From assembly GCA_965222715.1 (NCBI GenBank), contig OZ244961.1:140609-204608 (forward strand): a stretch of DNA of 64,000 bases. Direction: 5' to 3'. The position numbers and the translations under genes are program-made. The stretch comes from Minisyncoccota bacterium (lineage in GTDB: Bacteria > Patescibacteriota > Minisyncoccia > Phycocordibacterales > JABMNX01). This document shows positions 2,703 through 62,154 of the stretch, piece after piece (positions within the stretch are counted from its first letter, which is position 1; every line of letters starts with the position of its first letter). The notes under the pieces are model-generated. The model was not told the origin of the DNA and made no database searches. It saw only the letters and a program-made list of their open reading frames with translations.

Positions 2703-4364
<1,662 letters not shown>

Positions 4365-4385
4365 GTTTTACACTCACTACACAAA

Positions 4386-4413
4386 AAACGCTAAGAGTAC
4401 TCTTGGCGTTTTT
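4386..4413 (+). terminator. intrinsic terminator, copy 1 of conserved palindromic repeat AAACGCTAAGAGTACTCTTGGCGTTT
   Basis: perfect-ish 11-bp stem plus T-run directly after groEL stop. Confidence 0.6.
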
Positions 4414-4450
4414 TGTGTGATATAATCTTAAAAAATAAGTAATACATACT

Positions 4451-13346: not shown

Positions 13347-13680
13347 TAGCTTGTATTGGGTAGTTACTGGATATAGTTTCTATATCTAGAGGAAAGTCCG
13401 AACACGTCCACGTAAGTGGAGAAGGGTAGCGGGTAACACCCGTCTAGGGCAACCTAAGAGGTGCGAGCAGAGACGCCTAATTCGAAAGATGAGGGACTCC
13501 TTCGGGAGTAGCTCTGGTGGAAACACTAGAAGTGAAACGGCTAAATCCTTACCTACGTGCAAGGCCGTGCTGAGTTTAACTCAGAGTGCCGCTTGAGGTG
13601 TACAGTGATGTACATCCCAGATAAATGACTACCGTCGTCATTCGTGGCGATACAGAATTCGGCTTATAGATACAAGTGCA
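13347..13680 (+). ncRNA. rnpB: RNase P RNA (bacterial type A)
   Basis: GGAAAGTCCGAACAC P4 strand, AGGGCAACC-type internal segment, 3' ACAGAATTCGGCTTATAG matching the conserved ACAGAAcCCGGCUUA; P1 pairing GCTTGTAT/ATACAAG; P3 hairpin 13362-13386. Confidence 0.8.
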
Positions 13681-13690
13681 ACATATGGTA

Positions 13691-21183: not shown

Positions 21184-21255
21184 GCCCCTGTAGTTAAATG
21201 GATATAACAATCCCGTCCTAAGGGATTATTCTGGGTTCGATTCCTGGCGGGGGCA
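21184..21255 (+). tRNA. tRNA-Arg (anticodon CCT)
   Basis: cloverleaf by eye; anticodon loop GTCCTAA; followed by CCG, not CCA. Confidence 0.8.
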
Positions 21256-21282
21256 CCGAAATTAAAATACTGATATAAAACC

Positions 21283-21421
21283 AGTGTTTTAATTTTGGTC
21301 TCAGGAATCGAAAGACGGAACGAGCGGTAGCGAGTGAGTCCGGGTAGGAGCCACTTCGTACTATTCCAGTATACTGGCATAGTACGTTAGTGAGCTGACA
21401 CCGATTCCTGGCGGGGGCACA
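21283..21421 (+). repeat. tRNA 3'-flank structured element, copy A (ends in 19-nt repeat of the tRNA-Arg 3' end)
   Basis: core TCGAAAGACGGAACGAGCGGTAGCGAGTGAGTCCGGGTAGGAGCCACTT-hairpin-TAGTGAGCTGACACCG then CGATTCCTGGCGGGGGCAC, identical to 21237-21255; homologous to copies at 48970-49098, 57131-57228 and 58836-58952. Confidence 0.7.
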
Positions 21422-21586
21422 AAACTGCAAGAAAACCATACTTACGTCTCATTTCTTGCGTTTTGTGAAGTGGGGCGATATCAAGTGAAACGAGACCATC
21501 AGCCAGTGTTGTACTCTCCATACTATGAATTACATTCCTTGTTTTATTTAGCACTTTAAAAATGTATATGGTTTAATTTATTTATC

Positions 21587-23228: not shown

Positions 23229-23338
23229 CAAAGTGCGAATGATGAGTTTAGTAACCTGACGCCAAGATTGACCGCAAATCTGCCCAAAAAACACCACAAG
23301 TACTTGCGGTGTTTTTTAGTGACTCTAAACAGTTTCCT

Positions 23339-35995: not shown

Positions 35996-36406
35996 CTACA
36001 GTTTGAGACGACGCAGGTACGTGCGCTCCATTCTCTCCATTGTACTACCATGGCGTAGGCCTTTCAAATGCAGCAATCCGTGGATAAAGATAAACGCAAG
36101 ATACTTCTTCTCACTCATCCCAAATTCCTTTGCACGTTTTTTTGCTTTACGAGGATTAATAAAAATTTCTCCTTCTTTTTTCGAAAGAGGAAATGAAAGC
36201 ACATCAGGAATATAAGTCTTTCCTCTATAAGACTTGTTTAGTTTCTGTGCACGCGTATCACCAACAAAAGCAACACTCAATTCATAGTGTTCTCCAAGAA
36301 CATCATTCTTTATTTGTAGAAGTGGGAGGGAGGGGATAGCATTACGCACCGTACTAGAAACCGAGATGCCCGATTCGGTTGGGAATGTATGTGATACACG
36401 TGCCAT
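35996..36406 (-). CDS. ybeY: rRNA maturation endoribonuclease YbeY
   Basis: 136 aa, HGLLHLKGLRH zinc-binding motif. Confidence 0.7.
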   Translation of the reverse strand: MARVSHTFPTESGISVSSTVRNAIPSLPLLQIKNDVLGEHYELSVAFVGDTRAQKLNKSYRGKTYIPDVLSFPLSKKEGEIFINPRKAKKRAKEFGMSEKKYLAFIFIHGLLHLKGLRHGSTMERMERTYLRRLKL

Positions 36407-48020: not shown

Positions 48021-48371
48021 ATGAAAAAGTTTTTAATACTTCCAGGATTCCTTGCAGGTCTTCTTGTTGCTCCACTTGCAGTACAGGCACAAGGTGATCT
48101 CCAGGGTGTCATCACTGTCTTTTCAGACCTTATCAACCTCGCTATTCCTCTAGTGCTTGCACTTGCAGTACTCTACTTCTTCTGGGGACTCGCAATGTTT
48201 GTGCTTGCTCAAGGAAATGAAGACAAGCGTAAGGAAGGACGAGATATCATGATTTACGGTATCATTGCTCTCTTTGTGATGGTGTCCGTCTGGGGTCTTA
48301 TCGGAATCTTACAAGATACATTTGGTGTAGATAACACTAACCCAATTGTCCCTGAAGAGATTCGAAGGTAG
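48021..48371 (+). CDS. TrbC/VirB2-like pilin-type small membrane protein (paralog 3)
   Basis: 116 aa: signal peptide ending AQA, LYFFWGLAMFVLAQGNEDKRKEGRD...VMVSVWG core. Confidence 0.5.
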   Translation: MKKFLILPGFLAGLLVAPLAVQAQGDLQGVITVFSDLINLAIPLVLALAVLYFFWGLAMFVLAQGNEDKRKEGRDIMIYGIIALFVMVSVWGLIGILQDTFGVDNTNPIVPEEIRR

Positions 48372-48969: not shown

Positions 48970-49098
48970 TTTCGGTGCCCGGGACGGGAGTCGGTGTCAG
49001 CTCACTAAGCGTTATGCGCTAAGTGGCTCCTACCCGGACTCACTCGCTATCGCTCGTTCCGTCTTTCGACTCCCTTGAACCAAAATTAAAACACTGAC
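48970..49098 (-). repeat. tRNA 3'-flank structured element, copy B (24-nt repeat of the tRNA-Leu(TAA) 3' end)
   Basis: minus-strand reading: CAGTGTTTTAATTTTGGT-TCAAGGGAGTCGAAAGACGGAACGAGCGATAGCGAGTGAGTCCGGGTAGGAGCCACTT-hairpin-TAGTGAGCTGACACCGAC-GTCCCGGGCACCGAAA. Confidence 0.7.
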
Positions 49099-49121
49099 CC
49101 TCGCCAGTGTTTCAATTTCGG

Positions 49122-49202
49122 TGCCCGGGACGGGAGTCGAACCCGTATCCTAGAAGGACCCGATTTTAAGTCGAGCGCGTATACCAATTCCGCCACCCGG
49201 GC
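49122..49202 (-). tRNA. tRNA-Leu (anticodon TAA)
   Basis: cloverleaf by eye, long variable arm; anticodon loop CTTAAAA; followed by CCG. Confidence 0.8.
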
Positions 49203-57018: not shown

Positions 57019-57130
57019 TTTATAGCTTATTGGTGGGGGATTTGGCGCCAGTTCTAAACTCACTCTGTTCGTTAAGAACTCGCTGCCCCGTCGTTCAAAT
57101 CACTCTCGGTAGGAAATTTATGATTCCCTA

Positions 57131-57228
57131 GGCGTCAGCTCACTAACCTCAAAATAGTTTTGTTAACAAAACTATTTTGAGGAAGTGGCTCCTGCCCGAG
57201 CTCGCCGTCGTTCGTTCCTCACGACATG
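57131..57228 (-). repeat. tRNA 3'-flank structured element, copy D (degenerate, 3' of tRNA-Tyr)
   Basis: minus-strand GGAACGAACGACGGCGAGCTCGGGCAGGAGCCACTTCCTCAAAATAGTTTTGTTAACAAAACTATTTTGAGGTTAGTGAGCTGACGCC; nearly identical to copy C in the hairpin region. Confidence 0.6.
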
Positions 57229-57285
57229 GCTCCGCTTCACAAAACGCAGAAAACCAGACGCAGGTCTGGTTTTCTTGCAGTTTTG

Positions 57286-57369
57286 TGCGCCGGGAGGGAT
57301 TTGAACCCCCGTAGGACTAAGTCCGTCAGATTTACAGTCTGATGCAATTGACCACTCTGCCACCGACGC
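57286..57369 (-). tRNA. tRNA-Tyr (anticodon GTA)
   Basis: cloverleaf by eye, long variable arm, A73; anticodon loop CTGTAAA. Confidence 0.85.
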
Positions 57370-57577: not shown

Positions 57578-58411
57578 ATGAAATACGTACTTGCACTTGC
57601 TGTTCTATTTGTACTCATTGGGGGTACTTTTTTGCTATTGCCGGATGCGACTTTTGCACAATTCGATAACCCATCCCAAGGTACTGCAGTCCCTGGGGGC
57701 AATACTTCTTCTGGTTTAACGGAGAGAGTGGGGGGTGGAGGACTAGTGCCATGTGGAGGTCCAGGGCAAGACGCGTGTACCACATGTCACGCACTTCAAC
57801 TTGCACAAAATGTTGTTGAGTTCATTGTGCAAGTCTCATTTGTGATTGCTGCACTTCTGTTTGCCTACGCAGGCTTTCTCTTCTTTACTTCCTCTGCAGT
57901 TGACTCCATTTCAACAGCAAAAAATATTTTTACCAATACCGTTGTTGGTATCATCATCATTCTTACTGCTTGGCTCTTAGTAAATGTACTTCTTCATACA
58001 CTTACCGGTAAAGGAGTTAACCCTTTCACTGAATTGTTGTGTGACATAACTGAGCAACCCATACGAAACAATGCAACGAACAATTCAATAAACACTACCG
58101 GGGGCACAGCTAGTGGTGTGAGTACGGAAGGTGTTTCAGAAAATGATTCAGAGATAGATCCACTTCAAGATGCGCGAGATCGTGCAGCAGAAATACAGGC
58201 TGAACGTGATCGACAACTAGAAGAAGAGCGTCAGGCAGCAGTTGAAGCGGGGGGAGACCCTGACGAAGTGCCGTTGGTCAATAAATGGTTTTTTAGAACA
58301 CAGACAGGTCCACAAGGAGAAGAGGTGGGGCCTTTTGATTCGCAACCAGAATGTGTAAGTCGTGCAATTGCTTCAGGGGTAAATCCATTTTGTTACGCAA
58401 AATCAATCTAG
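57578..58411 (+). CDS. TrbC/VirB2-like pilin-type membrane protein (paralog 5) with 130-aa C-terminal Asn/Thr- and acidic-rich extension
   Basis: 277 aa: signal peptide, Cys-rich segment (CGGPGQDACTTCH), two-helix core collinear with 47226-47597. Confidence 0.45.
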   Translation: MKYVLALAVLFVLIGGTFLLLPDATFAQFDNPSQGTAVPGGNTSSGLTERVGGGGLVPCGGPGQDACTTCHALQLAQNVVEFIVQVSFVIAALLFAYAGFLFFTSSAVDSISTAKNIFTNTVVGIIIILTAWLLVNVLLHTLTGKGVNPFTELLCDITEQPIRNNATNNSINTTGGTASGVSTEGVSENDSEIDPLQDARDRAAEIQAERDRQLEEERQAAVEAGGDPDEVPLVNKWFFRTQTGPQGEEVGPFDSQPECVSRAIASGVNPFCYAKSI

Positions 58412-58701: not shown

Positions 58702-58772
58702 GGGCCTATAGTTCAGTGGTAGAATAACGGTCTCCAAAACCGTCGACCGAGGTTCGAGTCCTCGTGGGCCCG
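58702..58772 (+). tRNA. tRNA-Trp (anticodon CCA)
   Basis: cloverleaf by eye, G73; anticodon loop CTCCAAA. Confidence 0.85.
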
Positions 58773-58835
58773 CAATGATACAAAACAATAGCGTTTAGCT
58801 ATTATGTTGTAACTATCATTTCGAGGATTCAAGTG

Positions 58836-58952
58836 GACTCGAAAGACGGAGCCGAAGGCGAGTCCGGGCAGGAGCCACTTCCTCAAAATATTTTATGTTA
58901 ACAAAAGTATTTTGAGGTTAGTGAGCTGACGCCGAGTCCTCGTGGGCCCGCA
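58836..58952 (+). repeat. tRNA 3'-flank structured element, copy C (21-nt repeat of the tRNA-Trp 3' end)
   Basis: GGACTCGAAAGACGGAGCCGAAGGCGAGTCCGGGCAGGAGCCACTT-hairpin(CCTCAAAATA...TATTTTGAGG)-TTAGTGAGCTGACGCCGAGTCCTCGTGGGCCCGCAA. Confidence 0.7.
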
Positions 58953-59039
58953 AAACATTTTTCATACACCTTAGAATCCACCCCTCTTACTATTTCGTCA
59001 TATGAAGAAATAGTAAGATAGTGTGTTACGTAGAATCTG

Positions 59040-61980: not shown

Positions 61981-62104
61981 TTTACGTCTCCTTTGTTGGT
62001 TTTGTGGAAGGACTCTATATCCACAGAAACCCTACTTGAATAGGGTATAAAAATCAAGCTATACAACTTGCAAGACACGGTTTTGATTTTCCTTCACAGA
62101 GTGC

Positions 62105-62154
62105 TGGAGGGGAGACTCGAACTCCGACAAACAGTACTTTAAGTACTGTTTGTC
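62105..62154 (-). pseudogene. orphan tRNA 3' fragment (T-arm plus acceptor 3' strand GGAGTTCGAGTCTCCCCTCCAGCA) preceded by a perfect 13-bp hairpin
   Basis: minus-strand GACAAACAGTACTttaAGTACTGTTTGTC then a T-arm-like sequence; no matching 5' half found. Confidence 0.4.

Follow-up and report, generated by a model that had tools for sequence, protein, structure and literature searches.

A structured element between duplicated tRNA gene 3′ ends in Patescibacteria, tentatively read as a protein-less insertion element

Four copies of a small (about 100-250 nt), protein-less and highly structured element are found in the window, i.e. the whole 64,000-nucleotide stretch that was analysed, behind the genes for tRNA-Arg, tRNA-Leu(TAA), tRNA-Tyr and tRNA-Trp, together with a fifth, degenerate copy and two remnants. 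The family, referred to here as unit E, is specific to Patescibacteria (CPR) and apparently undescribed, a literature search having found no description of it. Its parts follow one another in the order host gene 3′ end (a), trailer hairpin, antisense segment (a′), conserved junction (helices P2 and P3) and second a. From sequence comparison we tentatively prefer to explain it as a protein-less insertion element that would be active as a folded single strand, entering and duplicating the 3′ ends of genes with a′ as its guide. A structured mobile element is favoured because of the covariation in the fold, the patchy distribution, the decay within tandem arrays, the differences between tRNA clusters and the occurrence of tmRNA and topA hosts.

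All features that a first-pass annotation had listed for the copy behind tRNA-Arg(CCT) (copy A), namely the tRNA gene, the hairpin, the antisense, the core and the 19-nt repeat, are present; its end lies at 21420, one base before the 21421 given earlier (Table 1). The antisense stretch CAGGAATCGAA (21302-21312) is 100% complementary over 11 nt to TTCGATTCCTG (21236-21246), and a second inverted match involving a′ covers 9 nt, likewise at 100%. The fold and the model alignment place a′ as the 5′ strand of a closing helix P1, whose 3′ strand is the first 9 nt of the distal repeat. Within the core, J1/2 reads AAAG, P2 is formed by GAC...GTC with a GGA/GAG internal loop, and P3 has a GGU/ACC base, an AGG/GAC internal loop and the helix AGCCACU/AGUGaGCU with a bulged A. 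The trailer hairpin P0 of copy A is shared with copy B and with one copy in locus L076. P0 and an 'anti-acceptor' segment are also present after the distal repeat in some loci (L010, L097), and for this reason both may be parts of the host trailer or of an older unit and not of the element itself. The remnant behind copy A has a copy-C-type hairpin (AAACTGCAAGAAA / TTTCTTGCGTTTT) and then GTGAAGTGGGGCGATATC..., like the start of copy C.

Table 1. Coordinates of unit E copies, their parts and remnants in the window
Feature	Position	Strand	Basis or remark
Copy A, host gene tRNA-Arg(CCT)	21184..21255	+	ARAGORN; Rfam tRNA 54.4 bits
Copy A, proximal repeat a	21238-21256	+	last 19 nt of tRNA-Arg(CCT), C56 to discriminator +1
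Copy A, trailer hairpin P0	21255..21299	+	arms ACCGAAATTAAAATACTG / CAGTGTTTTAATTTTGGT; terminator-like
Copy A, P0 hairpin arms	21255-21272 and 21282-21299	+	
Copy A, antisense a′ CAGGAATCG, then AA of J1/2	21302..21312	+	complementary to tRNA positions 54-64
Copy A, conserved core	21311..21401	+	covariance-model match 21299-21413, 82.2 bits; covariation
Copy A, variable tip of P3	21357-21386	+	
Copy A, distal repeat a, CGATTCCTGGCGGGGGCAC	21402..21420	+	exact copy of tRNA 3′ end (100%); same 19 nt as proximal repeat
Decayed remnant of older unit behind copy A	21421..21513	+	read directly from sequence
Probable remnant behind tRNA-Phe	23230..23290	+	below covariance-model threshold
tRNA-Phe remnant, GAGTTTAGTAACCTGACGCC	23244-23263	+	resembles P3 3′ strand and GACGCC
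Copy B and host tRNA-Leu(TAA) (49202-49120)	48970..49202	-	model match 89.6 bits
Copy B, proximal repeat	49139-49116	-	
Copy B, P0 hairpin	49130-49071	-	
Copy B, a′ GGGAGTCGAA	49074-49065	-	
Copy B, core	49078-48982	-	model match
Copy B, distal 24-nt repeat	48993-48970	-	
Copy C and host tRNA-Tyr (57369-57285)	57120..57369	-	model match 51.9 bits
Copy C, long P0 hairpin	57275-57248	-	CUGC loop
Copy C, core	57248-57120	-	directly after P0
Degenerate mini-copy behind copy C	57033..57109	-	model match 23.4 bits, E=3e-4
Copy D and host tRNA-Trp (58702-58773)	58702..58953	+	model match 80.7 bits
Copy D, proximal repeat, followed by trailer hairpin	58755-58775	+	
Copy D, a′ region	58830-58843	+	
Copy D, core	58830-58944	+	model match
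Copy D, P3 tip	58881-58917	+	
Copy D, distal 21-nt repeat	58933-58953	+	

The core motifs occur exactly four times in the window at 0 mismatches, and the covariance model recovers these four copies with E-values from 1e-22 to 1e-12. The earlier claim that all of them have both flanks re-matched to their own tRNA holds for copies A, B and D. Copy C consists of the core without tRNA-matched flanks or a tRNA-matched closing helix ('type C'); the Tyr-matched antisense (CCGAGAGTGATTTGAAC, 88% complementary to GTTCAAATCCCTCCCGG of tRNA-Tyr) and a decayed repeat (CAAATCCCCCAC) sit in the separate mini-copy downstream, which is without P2 and has a diverged P3. In the remnant behind tRNA-Phe, the P3-like stretch is followed by CAAATCTGCCC, like the 3′ strand of the tRNA-Phe T-arm. 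Altogether, about a third of the tRNAs in the window carry the element. Copies A and B differ in a′ by two transitions only, the very two differences between their T-arms; an argument from this pair that a′ is re-templated at each move was dropped after realignment had reduced the difference to these two transitions. Within the genome, P2 is similar between copies and the P3 tips are mosaic.

The antisense is 7-17 nt long, with complementarity to the host of up to 17 nt, and spans the T-loop from C56, the T-stem 3′ strand and, in some cases, all of the acceptor 3′ strand. The left edge of the duplication coincides exactly with the beginning of the complementarity to a′; in the main class this is T-loop position C56, where the edge lies in 45 of 57 cases. 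The right edge is usually discriminator +1, and lengths range from 19 nt to more than 50 nt, with about 115 nt for topA. Since the 3′ end of the host gene is duplicated directly on both flanks of the element from this point on, the gene remains intact, and a′ and the downstream copy close the junction (P1). Element termini that are inverted copies of the T-arm, as proposed earlier, do not describe the left segment, which is genuinely antisense to the tRNA 3′ strand and not a copy of the tRNA 5′ strand. At 14 of 17 G.U positions in the T-stem and at all 4 in the acceptor, a′ has the Watson-Crick complement; in tRNA-Ala, for example, G3.U70 becomes A-U via a′, which also pairs with T-loop bases 56-60. 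An origin as a tandem tRNA pseudogene or duplicate was rejected on the same positions, at most of which the G.U pairs are not retained.

In some copies the antisense follows the trailer of the gene rather than CCA, and in 'type C' copies pairing involves upstream sequence only. Against the guide reading, guides matching unique trailer sequences ('type C' and the 3′-end classes) are hard to explain as pre-existing, and the strictly Watson-Crick a′ could mean templating from the target, i.e. an inverted duplication, rather than a guide. The discriminator of the tRNA genes is usually followed by C, often CAA; CCA follows it in 11 of 64 distal and 6 of 64 proximal copies. As a sign of a retro-copy of the mature tRNA 3′ end, whose distal repeat would carry a post-transcriptional CCA absent from the gene, this excess is weak, and the lack of a clear retro-signature counts against the insertion-element reading. 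In seven loci (L019, L021, L031, L039, L040, L043 and L055) the distal copy is mutated yet a′, as judged by eye, still matches the tRNA.

Across the family, the core is made up of J1/2 (GAAAG), of P2, whose loop is GGAG/CGAG, and of P3, which contains the bulged A, a U.U pair and the variable tip. P1, built from a′ and the downstream repeat copy and up to 17 bp long, closes a three-way junction in which P3 stacks on P1 with no unpaired base in between. The fold on the tRNA-sense strand is supported by covariation: paired cells amount to 82% vs 70% in shuffles, and the covariation score is 0.313 vs 0.117 shuffled (0 of 500 shuffles reach 0.313; slid controls 0.05-0.12), figures that pertain to sequences gathered by a pattern fixing part of P3 and to a structure derived from these same sequences. 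Among the covarying pairs are 17/78 (AU 23, GC 16, CG 11, UA 3) and 84/148 (CG 39, UA 12). The strands are asymmetric, with G.U vs A.C at 43:23, and strand-specific tandem G.A motifs are seen in the aligned sequences; compensatory changes beyond both kinds of control, combined with such asymmetry, are the general mark of a structured RNA. At fixed points of the fold some copies have extra hairpins or expansions, and diverged subfamilies show compensatory changes in the otherwise 'invariant' P3 helix. Mini-hairpins of the GCGAAGC type, which are unusually stable in DNA, are common in the P3 tips.

A search of public genomes with the core pattern returned 111 stretches, nearly all from Patescibacteria, and the covariance model identified 140 copies, spread over 100 of these 111 loci. 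Several CPR classes are represented, genomes contain numerous copies, and the core is conserved at nearly every nucleotide. The hosts are tRNAs of 19 amino-acid types, but also tmRNA genes, rarely protein genes (the topA 3′ end) and sites after terminators; the element always lies on the same strand as the host gene and 3′ of it, and the loci share no common downstream gene. As the same architecture recurs in more than 100 independent public assemblies, the four copies are neither chance nor an assembly artefact, the latter having been raised in the first-pass annotation. Searches of phage, plasmid and viral contig collections returned no copies.

Pfam scans of the about 48 proteins of the window revealed no recombinase, transposase, reverse transcriptase or mobile-type nuclease, and all-against-all ORF clustering of the 111 loci yielded housekeeping genes only (GatA/C, ValRS, RluD, LigA, SmpB, TsaD). 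The earlier suggestion to look for a recombinase or TnpB gene thus led to none in the window or among the 111 loci, and the same two sets contain no integrase and no TnpA (Y1 HUH); a recombinase may be encoded elsewhere in the genome. No catalytic motif or enzyme was identified for the element, which speaks against the insertion-element reading. Likewise, an Rfam 15 scan of the whole window at gathering thresholds gave tRNAs and RNase P only, and scans of the element regions at E<=10, and of L001, L003, L010 and L076 at E<=1, gave no match on the element. In line with the first-pass proposal that Rfam be consulted, unit E fits no Rfam family, including hammerhead, twister-sister, hatchet, pistol, HDV, group I, group II D5/D6, 5S, T-box and tmRNA.

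Several individual candidates were rejected. A hammerhead of type II topology would call for CUGANGA where the core has CUGAC(G/A)C, the G8-equivalent is part of a covarying pair (with 84), and the P2/P3 junction has 2-3 nt and a further helix vs the single-nucleotide H17. Of a group II D5/D6 remnant, only the branch A of domain VI, 7-8 nt from the 3′ end, has a counterpart, namely the A bulged out 8 nt before that end; there is no Intron_gpII match and no reverse transcriptase, and where a domain V would be 34 nt long with a paired AGC triad, a 2-nt bulge and a GNRA loop, P2 has a tandem G.A loop (GGAG/CGAG), variable length and a 5′ bulge. Published Patescibacteria tRNA introns sit in the anticodon loop, and CPR/Patescibacteria are described as being without group II introns (PMC13011429). 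A group I intron was rejected on size and on the lack of an Rfam match, and neither a 5S rRNA-like three-way junction nor K-turn readings of the AGG/GAC and GGAG/CGAG loops fit in register. A MITE would have terminal inverted repeats and a short duplication of fixed length; here the left end (trailer hairpin or a′) is no inverted copy of the right end (GCUGACRCC), and the duplication varies from 19 to more than 100 nt. For an IS200/IS605 member or derivative, no TnpA/TnpB ORF was found and a long target duplication is present. Direct repeats of the tRNA 3′ end, as expected of integrative elements, are seen in the window (19-24 nt, exact) and at most tRNA-linked loci; plain recombinase att scars are nevertheless unlikely, given a core with RNA-type covariation and no linked integrase in the window or the 111 loci. 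Of the three options first offered, a mobile element and a structured non-coding RNA are therefore combined in the preferred reading, and the third, att scars of this plain kind, recedes.

In tandem arrays the inner repeat is perfect and the outer one decayed, and in one inner copy 2 of the 10 a′ positions do not match the tRNA. The element sets of the syntenic Cys-Leu/Leu-Lys clusters differ between the window, L076 and L100; occurrence is patchy, and decay is evident in many copies. Orthologous copies with an intact core exist across species (L003/L067 and the topA trio L059/L092/L096). In the topA trio, a′ covaries with synonymous ORF changes and tracks the functional (proximal) ORF sequence, and P2 is identical while the distal ORF fragment decays. 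To judge from the sequences, such orthologous copies are no less compatible with host selection at the level of the locus, or with concerted evolution, than with mobility. Exact-protein look-ups for close relatives gave no empty/filled allele pair, and a single metagenome scan for empty sites returned one unrelated tRNA-Arg locus, without the element. Insertion is something we infer from comparative anatomy.

As an insertion element, unit E would most likely act as an RNA co-transcribed with the tRNA, the folded single strand being the active form. Its a′, serving as internal guide, would pair with the T-loop/T-stem 3′ strand and so bring the core's 3′ end to the 55|56 phosphodiester; insertion with re-synthesis of the displaced gene end, catalysed either by the RNA itself or by a host enzyme in trans, would produce a repeat whose left edge is fixed and whose right edge varies. 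Each new copy would enter beside the gene, with older ones being displaced outward and decaying. A stronger form, which we consider unlikely, is a self-contained guide-directed mobile RNA, a ribozyme-like 'gene-end invader', whose a′ would pair with the T-loop/T-stem 3′ strand of tRNA or tmRNA or with any matching sequence and whose core would catalyse or template the attachment of the element's 3′ end to position 56; alternatively, the same chemistry might swap or repair tRNA 3′ ends.

The main rival, possible although rather doubtful in our view, is a cis-acting trailer RNA of the host, co-transcribed with tRNA, tmRNA or some mRNAs, in which a′ would toggle between the host 3′ strand and the downstream decoy copy, and the junction would bind a protein or ligand and control 3′-end processing, folding quality control or stability; its spread would be due to duplication or gene conversion, not transposition. 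Such a role would suit a core kept by compensatory evolution across CPR classes, the conservation of orthologous copies between species (in the topA trio with identical P2, a decaying distal fragment and an a′ that follows the functional ORF), the persistence of the a′ match in the seven loci with mutated distal copies, the upstream-only pairing of 'type C' copies and the constant strand and position relative to the host gene, and the similar P2 and mosaic P3 tips within a genome would fit concerted evolution. However, only about a third of the window tRNAs carry the element and syntenic tRNA clusters differ; the many decaying copies, tandem duplicates and nested remnants are unexpected for a processing signal, the host-derived repeat is far longer than pairing needs, and the hosts are heterogeneous with no common downstream gene.

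Mobilisation in trans of a miniature integrative element by a site-specific (tyrosine/Xer-like) recombinase appears quite improbable. Here, single-stranded a′ and a would fold into a duplex copy of the tRNA from T-loop to 3′ end, a folded attP as in CTX phage or integron attC, and one-strand exchange with the chromosomal tRNA gene would give tRNA(a) - element - a′ - core - a. The observed direct-a ... inverted-a′ - about 90 nt - direct-a would be the arrangement predicted, and the target sublocations correspond to the integrase classes, which reportedly comprise tmRNA and the 3′ ends of protein genes besides the T-loop and the extreme 3′ end. Blocks of identity whose inner edge is fixed and whose outer edge varies are typical of attL/attR and are seen here; the strictly Watson-Crick a′ would suit a complement made at the DNA level, as would the DNA-stable mini-hairpins in the tips. 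These points are opposed by the absence of an integrase or mobile-element gene in the window and of any enriched in the 111 loci, by the need for every copy to have an attP matched to its own tRNA, by the G.U-tolerant covariation and tandem G.A motifs, which point to RNA, and by the lack of copies in the phage, plasmid and viral collections. An origin as a passive side effect of template switching in replication or of ectopic gene conversion among tRNA genes is highly improbable. Microhomology at the conserved T-loop (CGAnTCC) and at the tRNA end would let a pre-existing insert be copied between tRNA genes, so that the direct-inverted-direct pattern arises without element-encoded activity, and the coincidence of the left edge with the most conserved tRNA sequence, the C or CAA after the discriminator, the inner copy with a mismatched a′ and the two T-arm-like transitions between copies A and B agree with this. 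It leaves unexplained why P2 and P3 covary and are under purifying selection across phyla, and does not account for the insertions in topA or behind unrelated terminators, where a′ is matched, or for the a′ complementarity of up to 17 nt.

CPR/Patescibacteria genomes are tiny, yet the element is multi-copy per genome across several CPR classes. If mobile, it would combine a compact choice of target by base pairing with a duplication of the gene end that spares the target gene, and would be relevant to the persistence of selfish elements in minimal genomes and perhaps to tools for programmable insertion. As a host RNA, it would uncover a new tRNA-specific layer of tRNA/tmRNA maturation or quality control in a major, poorly understood bacterial branch. 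On either reading, the duplicated tRNA 3′ ends, which resemble stray tRNA fragments or att-site scars, could matter for annotation.

Compared with known systems, unit E resembles tRNA/tmRNA-targeting integrative elements (prophages and genomic islands with tyrosine integrases) in its targets, from T-loop to 3′ end or at protein-gene 3′ ends, in the direct repeats that restore the gene and in identity blocks of varying length. Unlike these, it is 100-250 nt long and non-coding, has no linked integrase, is stacked in tandem behind one gene, and possesses a conserved covarying fold with an internal antisense of the repeat. With CTX-phage attP(+)/XerCD and integron attC it shares inverted segments about 90 nt apart that pair and imitate a duplex target, partial conservation of structure rather than sequence, and an integrated copy between direct repeats; in those systems the target is a single fixed one (dif or attI) and the recombinases are known, whereas the segment of unit E is re-matched to many genes and its G.U pairs and G.A motifs favour RNA. 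Similarly to introns, it would be a structured RNA whose internal guide pairs with the flank of the insertion site; it has tRNA and tmRNA hosts, some copies lie directly behind terminator hairpins, and the bulged A 8 nt from the P3 3′ end recalls intron domain VI. In contrast to introns, it matches no Rfam intron model, is far too small, has no reverse transcriptase or homing endonuclease and leaves the gene uninterrupted, and no splicing is needed because the gene end is duplicated.

Subterminal hairpins, a short guide at the foot of a hairpin that base-pairs with the target or cleavage site, and non-autonomous copies are also known from IS200/IS605 with its miniature derivatives and TnpB omega-RNA, but guides there are 4-5 nt long, there is no target duplication and TnpA/TnpB is nearby in the family; unit E has a putative guide of 7-17 nt, a duplication of 19 to more than 100 nt and no TnpA/TnpB gene seen. 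MITEs, REPINs, Correia elements and Rickettsia palindromic elements are likewise short, non-coding, multi-copy and foldable, some being tolerated inside genes; they have terminal inverted repeats and short fixed target duplications, in place of the target-matched antisense, gene-3′-end specificity and junction core conserved across phyla of unit E. The 3′ETS-leuZ sponge, mascRNA, the tRNA-like domain of tmRNA, YrlA, viral TLS and the T-box also adjoin or derive from tRNA sequence, and long-P1 copies of unit E imitate an acceptor/T minihelix as tRNA-mimicking RNAs do. Unlike the trailer and mimic RNAs, it has no T-loop or free NCCA end, forms a repeated family matched to each host gene, and takes its specificity from the T-arm antisense and not from anticodon or CCA. 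A guide-directed mobile RNA of this kind would be distinct from group I/II introns, IS200/605, IS110 bridge RNAs and CRISPR-associated transposons.

The element first recognized behind tRNA-Arg(CCT) is genuine and widespread. Its layout at 21184-21420 (copy A) reads as the first-pass annotation had described it, with tRNA, hairpin, antisense, core and an exact 19-nt repeat in succession, and the core between antisense and distal repeat is conserved. Three more copies, with both flanks matched to the local tRNA, had been claimed behind tRNA-Leu(TAA), tRNA-Tyr and tRNA-Trp (copies B, C and D). All three carry the core, with motifs identical to those of copy A (0 mismatches), and the Leu and Trp copies have exact repeats of 24 and 21 nt, both with matched antisense. 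The claim of matched flanks did not hold for the Tyr copy, in which a long hairpin is followed at once by the core, and both repeat and matched antisense are absent. The mini-copy downstream of it has a 17-nt antisense, 88% complementary to tRNA-Tyr, and a decayed repeat; a covariance model recovered the four copies and the mini-copy. Copies A and B have the trailer hairpin (P0) in common and, with one difference, the core helix P2, and their a′ segments (antisense of the host gene 3′ end, a) differ at exactly the two positions distinguishing their T-arms. In copies C and D the tip of the second core helix, P3, is the sole common part. This mosaic sharing of parts suggests recombination among the copies.

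Features located in the window
Feature	Position	Strand	Remark
Class A bacterial RNase P RNA	13348-13682	+	128 bits
tRNA-Arg(CCT)	21184-21255	+	host gene of copy A
Copy A hairpin	21255-21299	+	directly 3′ of tRNA-Arg(CCT)
Copy A antisense CAGGAATCGAA	21302-21312	+	perfect complement of tRNA TTCGATTCCTG, 21236-21246
Copy A distal repeat	21402-21420	+	exact 19-nt match to tRNA 3′ end, 21238-21256; terminates element
Remnant behind copy A	21421-21513	+	decayed unit, subtype other than copy A
Probable remnant behind tRNA-Phe	23244-23263	+	graded as probable
YbeY	35996-36406		window gene
Degenerate mini-copy	57107-57033	-	separate unit downstream of Tyr copy C
Palindromic P3 tips	21365-21376; 57158-57171 and 58893-58906		CCAGTATACTGG; GTTAAC-centred
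ORFs matching the type IV secretion system pilin family (PF18895)	48021-48371 and 57578-58411		one between copies C and D
Isolated tRNA 3′ fragment GGAGTTCGAGTCTCCCCTCCAGCAC	62101-62125	-	T-arm and 3′ acceptor strand from another tRNA

Public genomes, one per species, were searched with the pattern GGAGCCACT-N(11-41)-TAGTGAGCTGAC. It matched 111 stretches (L001-L111), about 8 of which are expected by chance on our own estimate, and nearly all of the 80 titles listed are Patescibacteria (candidate phyla radiation, CPR); Saccharibacteria, Paceibacteria/Parcubacteria, Kaiserbacteria, Spechtbacterales, Vogelbacteria and Peregrinibacteria are among the lineages with matches. Recurrence beside tRNA 3′ ends was seen in relatives as well: in the 111 loci the P3 motif usually stands 80-170 nt downstream of the end of a same-strand tRNA, with 19 amino-acid types represented, and the 14 nt 3′ of the core are found exactly in the upstream tRNA in about half of them. 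Covariance model R1, built from 56 copies, yielded 140 copies in 100 loci, including many diverged ones that the pattern overlooks. The pattern had 0 matches in viral contigs, and phage and plasmid records queried with one element copy gave no match. Three matches bear non-CPR labels. L024 (Rhodobiaceae) is clearly a chance match, the remainder of the element being absent; genuine elements are present in L030 (Desulfovibrionaceae), at the end of a contig, and in L042 (Bdellovibrionales), 3′ of tRNA-Ser, and these two may be mis-binned CPR contigs or else rare non-CPR occurrences.

The structure, defined on alignment A1, comprises a closing helix (P1) of a′ paired with the repeat, a joining segment (J1/2) AAAG, P2 (3-bp base G-N-C/G-N′-C, GGAG/CGAG loop, variable stem) and P3 (base GG-N/N′-CC, internal loop AGG/GAC, AGCCACU/AGUGaGCU with a bulged A, a U·U pair and a variable tip). 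Alignment and covariation support this fold: paired cells amount to 82.4% against 70.3% when shuffled, and covariation scores 0.313, compared with 0.117 for shuffles (0/500 as high) and 0.05-0.12 for slid partners, with the caveats that the search pattern fixes part of P3 and that the same sequences served to derive the structure. Individual pairs change on both sides, as at 17/78 (AU 23, GC 16, CG 11, UA 3) and 84/148 (CG 39, UA 12, UG 2, GC 1). Set against the two caveats, diverged subfamilies found by the model show compensatory changes in the "invariant" P3 helix (AAGC/GaCUU, CGC/GaCG), and the internal loop varies too. G·U outnumbers A·C by 43:23, and recurrent GAG...CGA tandem G·A motifs, noted by eye in the aligned sequences, occur on the tRNA-sense strand only; both features make the sense strand the folded one, most simply an RNA transcribed together with the tRNA. 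Additional, optional hairpins enter at one point, GGGCAG^GAGCC, and P2 is enlarged in some copies; such additions and helix expansions are usual in functional RNAs. In the Rfam scan no family matched the element at any threshold tried.

Inside the GGGCAG^GAGCC junction, a subgroup made up of L034, L049, L078 and L097 (minus-strand copy) has a large AT-rich insertion of ~100-120 nt, with CCCACACCATAC...GTATGGTGTGGG as its long closing stem. The variable P3 tips sort into a small number of recurring AT-rich types that are perfect palindromes (UUCCAGUAUACUGGAA, UACGAUAUAUCGUA, UUGUUAACAA), found in the window and in L016, L027, L032, L059, L068, L071, L076 and L077; these types are common to distant genomes and exchanged between otherwise unlike copies, and they may serve in dimerisation or kissing contacts, or bind a dimeric protein. 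Motifs of the GA-GCGAAGC-GA type, that is, a GNA triloop with a C-G closing pair and tandem G·A on its flanks, are very frequent in P2 and P3 tips (e.g. L008, L012, L014, L035, L051, L062). GCGAAGC is an exceptionally stable DNA mini-hairpin, and a single-stranded-DNA form of the element therefore stays in play.

The left edge of the direct repeat is fixed at T-loop C56, two bases past GCUGAC, in 45 of 57 cases. The right edge is variable, most commonly at the discriminator or one base beyond (19-20 nt); in several loci the repeat runs at least 30 nt into the trailer, and in L096, where the host gene is topA, its length as read from the sequence is ~115 nt. Contiguous pairing of a′ with the repeat start reaches at least 7 bp in 47 of 81 copies (about 3.3 in shuffles); T-loop bases 56-60 likewise pair, and the longest pairing, 17 bp, takes in the acceptor 3′ strand too. 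A copy of the tRNA 5′ strands is ruled out as the identity of a′, since at 14 of 17 G·U positions in the T-stem and at all four in the acceptor, including G3·U70 of tRNA-Ala, a′ has the base that forms a Watson-Crick pair with the 3′ strand.

In one subclass P0, with a CUGC loop, lies directly 5′ of a′, and 9 of 59 loci have extra acceptor-strand antisense 5′ of P0 (1.7 expected). Because both also occur 3′ of the distal repeat in some loci, they may be parts of the trailer or of an older unit. The CUGC-loop hairpin seems to be a breakpoint, which suggests recombination or cleavage at its loop. At L078 (~4300-4420) P0 is split by ~30 nt inserted in its loop; at L096 and L005 the long duplication ends at or within this loop (break after GCAAGCAAAC).

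Hosts other than tRNA genes were also found. The tmRNA hosts (L007, L010, L085, L107) have a T-loop-to-3′-end repeat as in tRNAs, and L084 has a tmRNA-like arrangement by eye, an ARAGORN call of tmRNA being absent. Three related genomes (the topA trio, L059/L092/L096) have topA as host, at an identical site 75 nt before the stop codon. "Type C" copies stand directly behind terminator-like hairpins with the tRNA-like P1 absent, and in a subclass (L071, L105) the repeat begins at the very 3′ terminus of the tRNA, trailer included. The Cys-Leu(TAA)/Leu(TAG)-Lys tRNA cluster is alike in order and unlike in element content between the window (behind Leu(TAA) only), L076 (two behind Cys, two behind Leu(TAA), and Lys) and L100 (two behind Cys, and Leu(TAG)). 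In the L076 arrays the tRNA-proximal unit has a perfect or near-perfect distal repeat and that of the outer unit is decayed; a′ of one inner unit has two mismatches to its tRNA. Other features are signs of maintenance over long periods. Where distal repeats are mutated, a′ nonetheless matches the tRNA. L003/L067 and the topA trio appear to be orthologous copies, on the basis of a common host gene and site and of sequence similarity. Within the trio, P2 is identical in L059 and L092, the distal ORF fragment is decaying, and a′ covaries with synonymous ORF changes (CGAAGAC/GTCTTCG vs CAAAAAC/GTTTTTG); wobble pairing of the U's with the older distal copy is still possible, an RNA-type path.

Some 80 nt 3′ of tRNA-Leu(CAA) lies the isolated fragment GGAGTTCGAGTCTCCCCTCCAGCAC, between a perfect hairpin, GACAAACAGTACTTAAAGTACTGTTTGTC, which immediately precedes it, and TCTGTGAAGG, which resembles a type C junction; the fragment is perhaps an att-type scar of some age or a wholly decayed element. 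Together with RNase P RNA and YbeY, genes for peptidyl-tRNA hydrolase, TsaD, MiaA and several aminoacyl-tRNA synthetases mark the window as an ordinary CPR housekeeping chromosome segment. Encoded CCA is rare in the tRNA genes of related loci (6/64), where C comes next after the discriminator in 61/64 and CAA in 30/64; in the window C follows in 11 of 13 tRNA genes. The 3′ context appears to be conserved and is perhaps a processing signal.

In combination, these data describe a large CPR-specific, protein-less family with a covariation-supported fold, which occupies the trailer 3′ of tRNA genes, tmRNA genes and a few others, is flanked by the duplicated host-gene 3′ end and carries antisense to the start of that duplication. 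Patchy element content of syntenic clusters, age-ordered tandem stacks, nested remnants and heterogeneous hosts argue for arrival by insertion; a search for close relatives in which to compare empty sites yielded none. In such an event a′ would act as a guide fixing the insertion point, the 3′ end of the core would abut C56 with P3 stacked on P1, and the duplication could arise when the displaced gene end is synthesised anew, or be carried by the integrating intermediate. The chief alternative is that the element acts in cis for the host, as a trailer RNA whose a′ switches between pairing with the 3′ strand of the tRNA itself and pairing with the decoy copy, a reading favoured by the conservation of orthologous copies. 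It is compatible with insertion, since an element that is domesticated or addictive would agree with either.

Insertion of a folded attP driven by a recombinase predicts the direct-inverted-direct order well, but fits the RNA-type evidence more poorly and lacks an enzyme: the recombinase system raised in the first-pass annotation found no counterpart, as neither recombinase nor transposase, nor any other linked enzyme, was detected in a Pfam scan of ~48 window proteins (housekeeping or without assigned function) or in ORF clusters of the 111 loci (housekeeping families only). A purely passive template-switch origin would leave the selection on the core unexplained.

The family is absent from Rfam and, as far as searched, without description in the literature, the nearest paper concerning group I introns in Patescibacteria tRNA anticodon loops (PMC13011429). 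That insertion proceeds by a categorically new guide-directed, protein-less mechanism we regard as unlikely, and the family is conservatively filed with gene-3′-end-targeting insertion elements and structured trailer RNAs.
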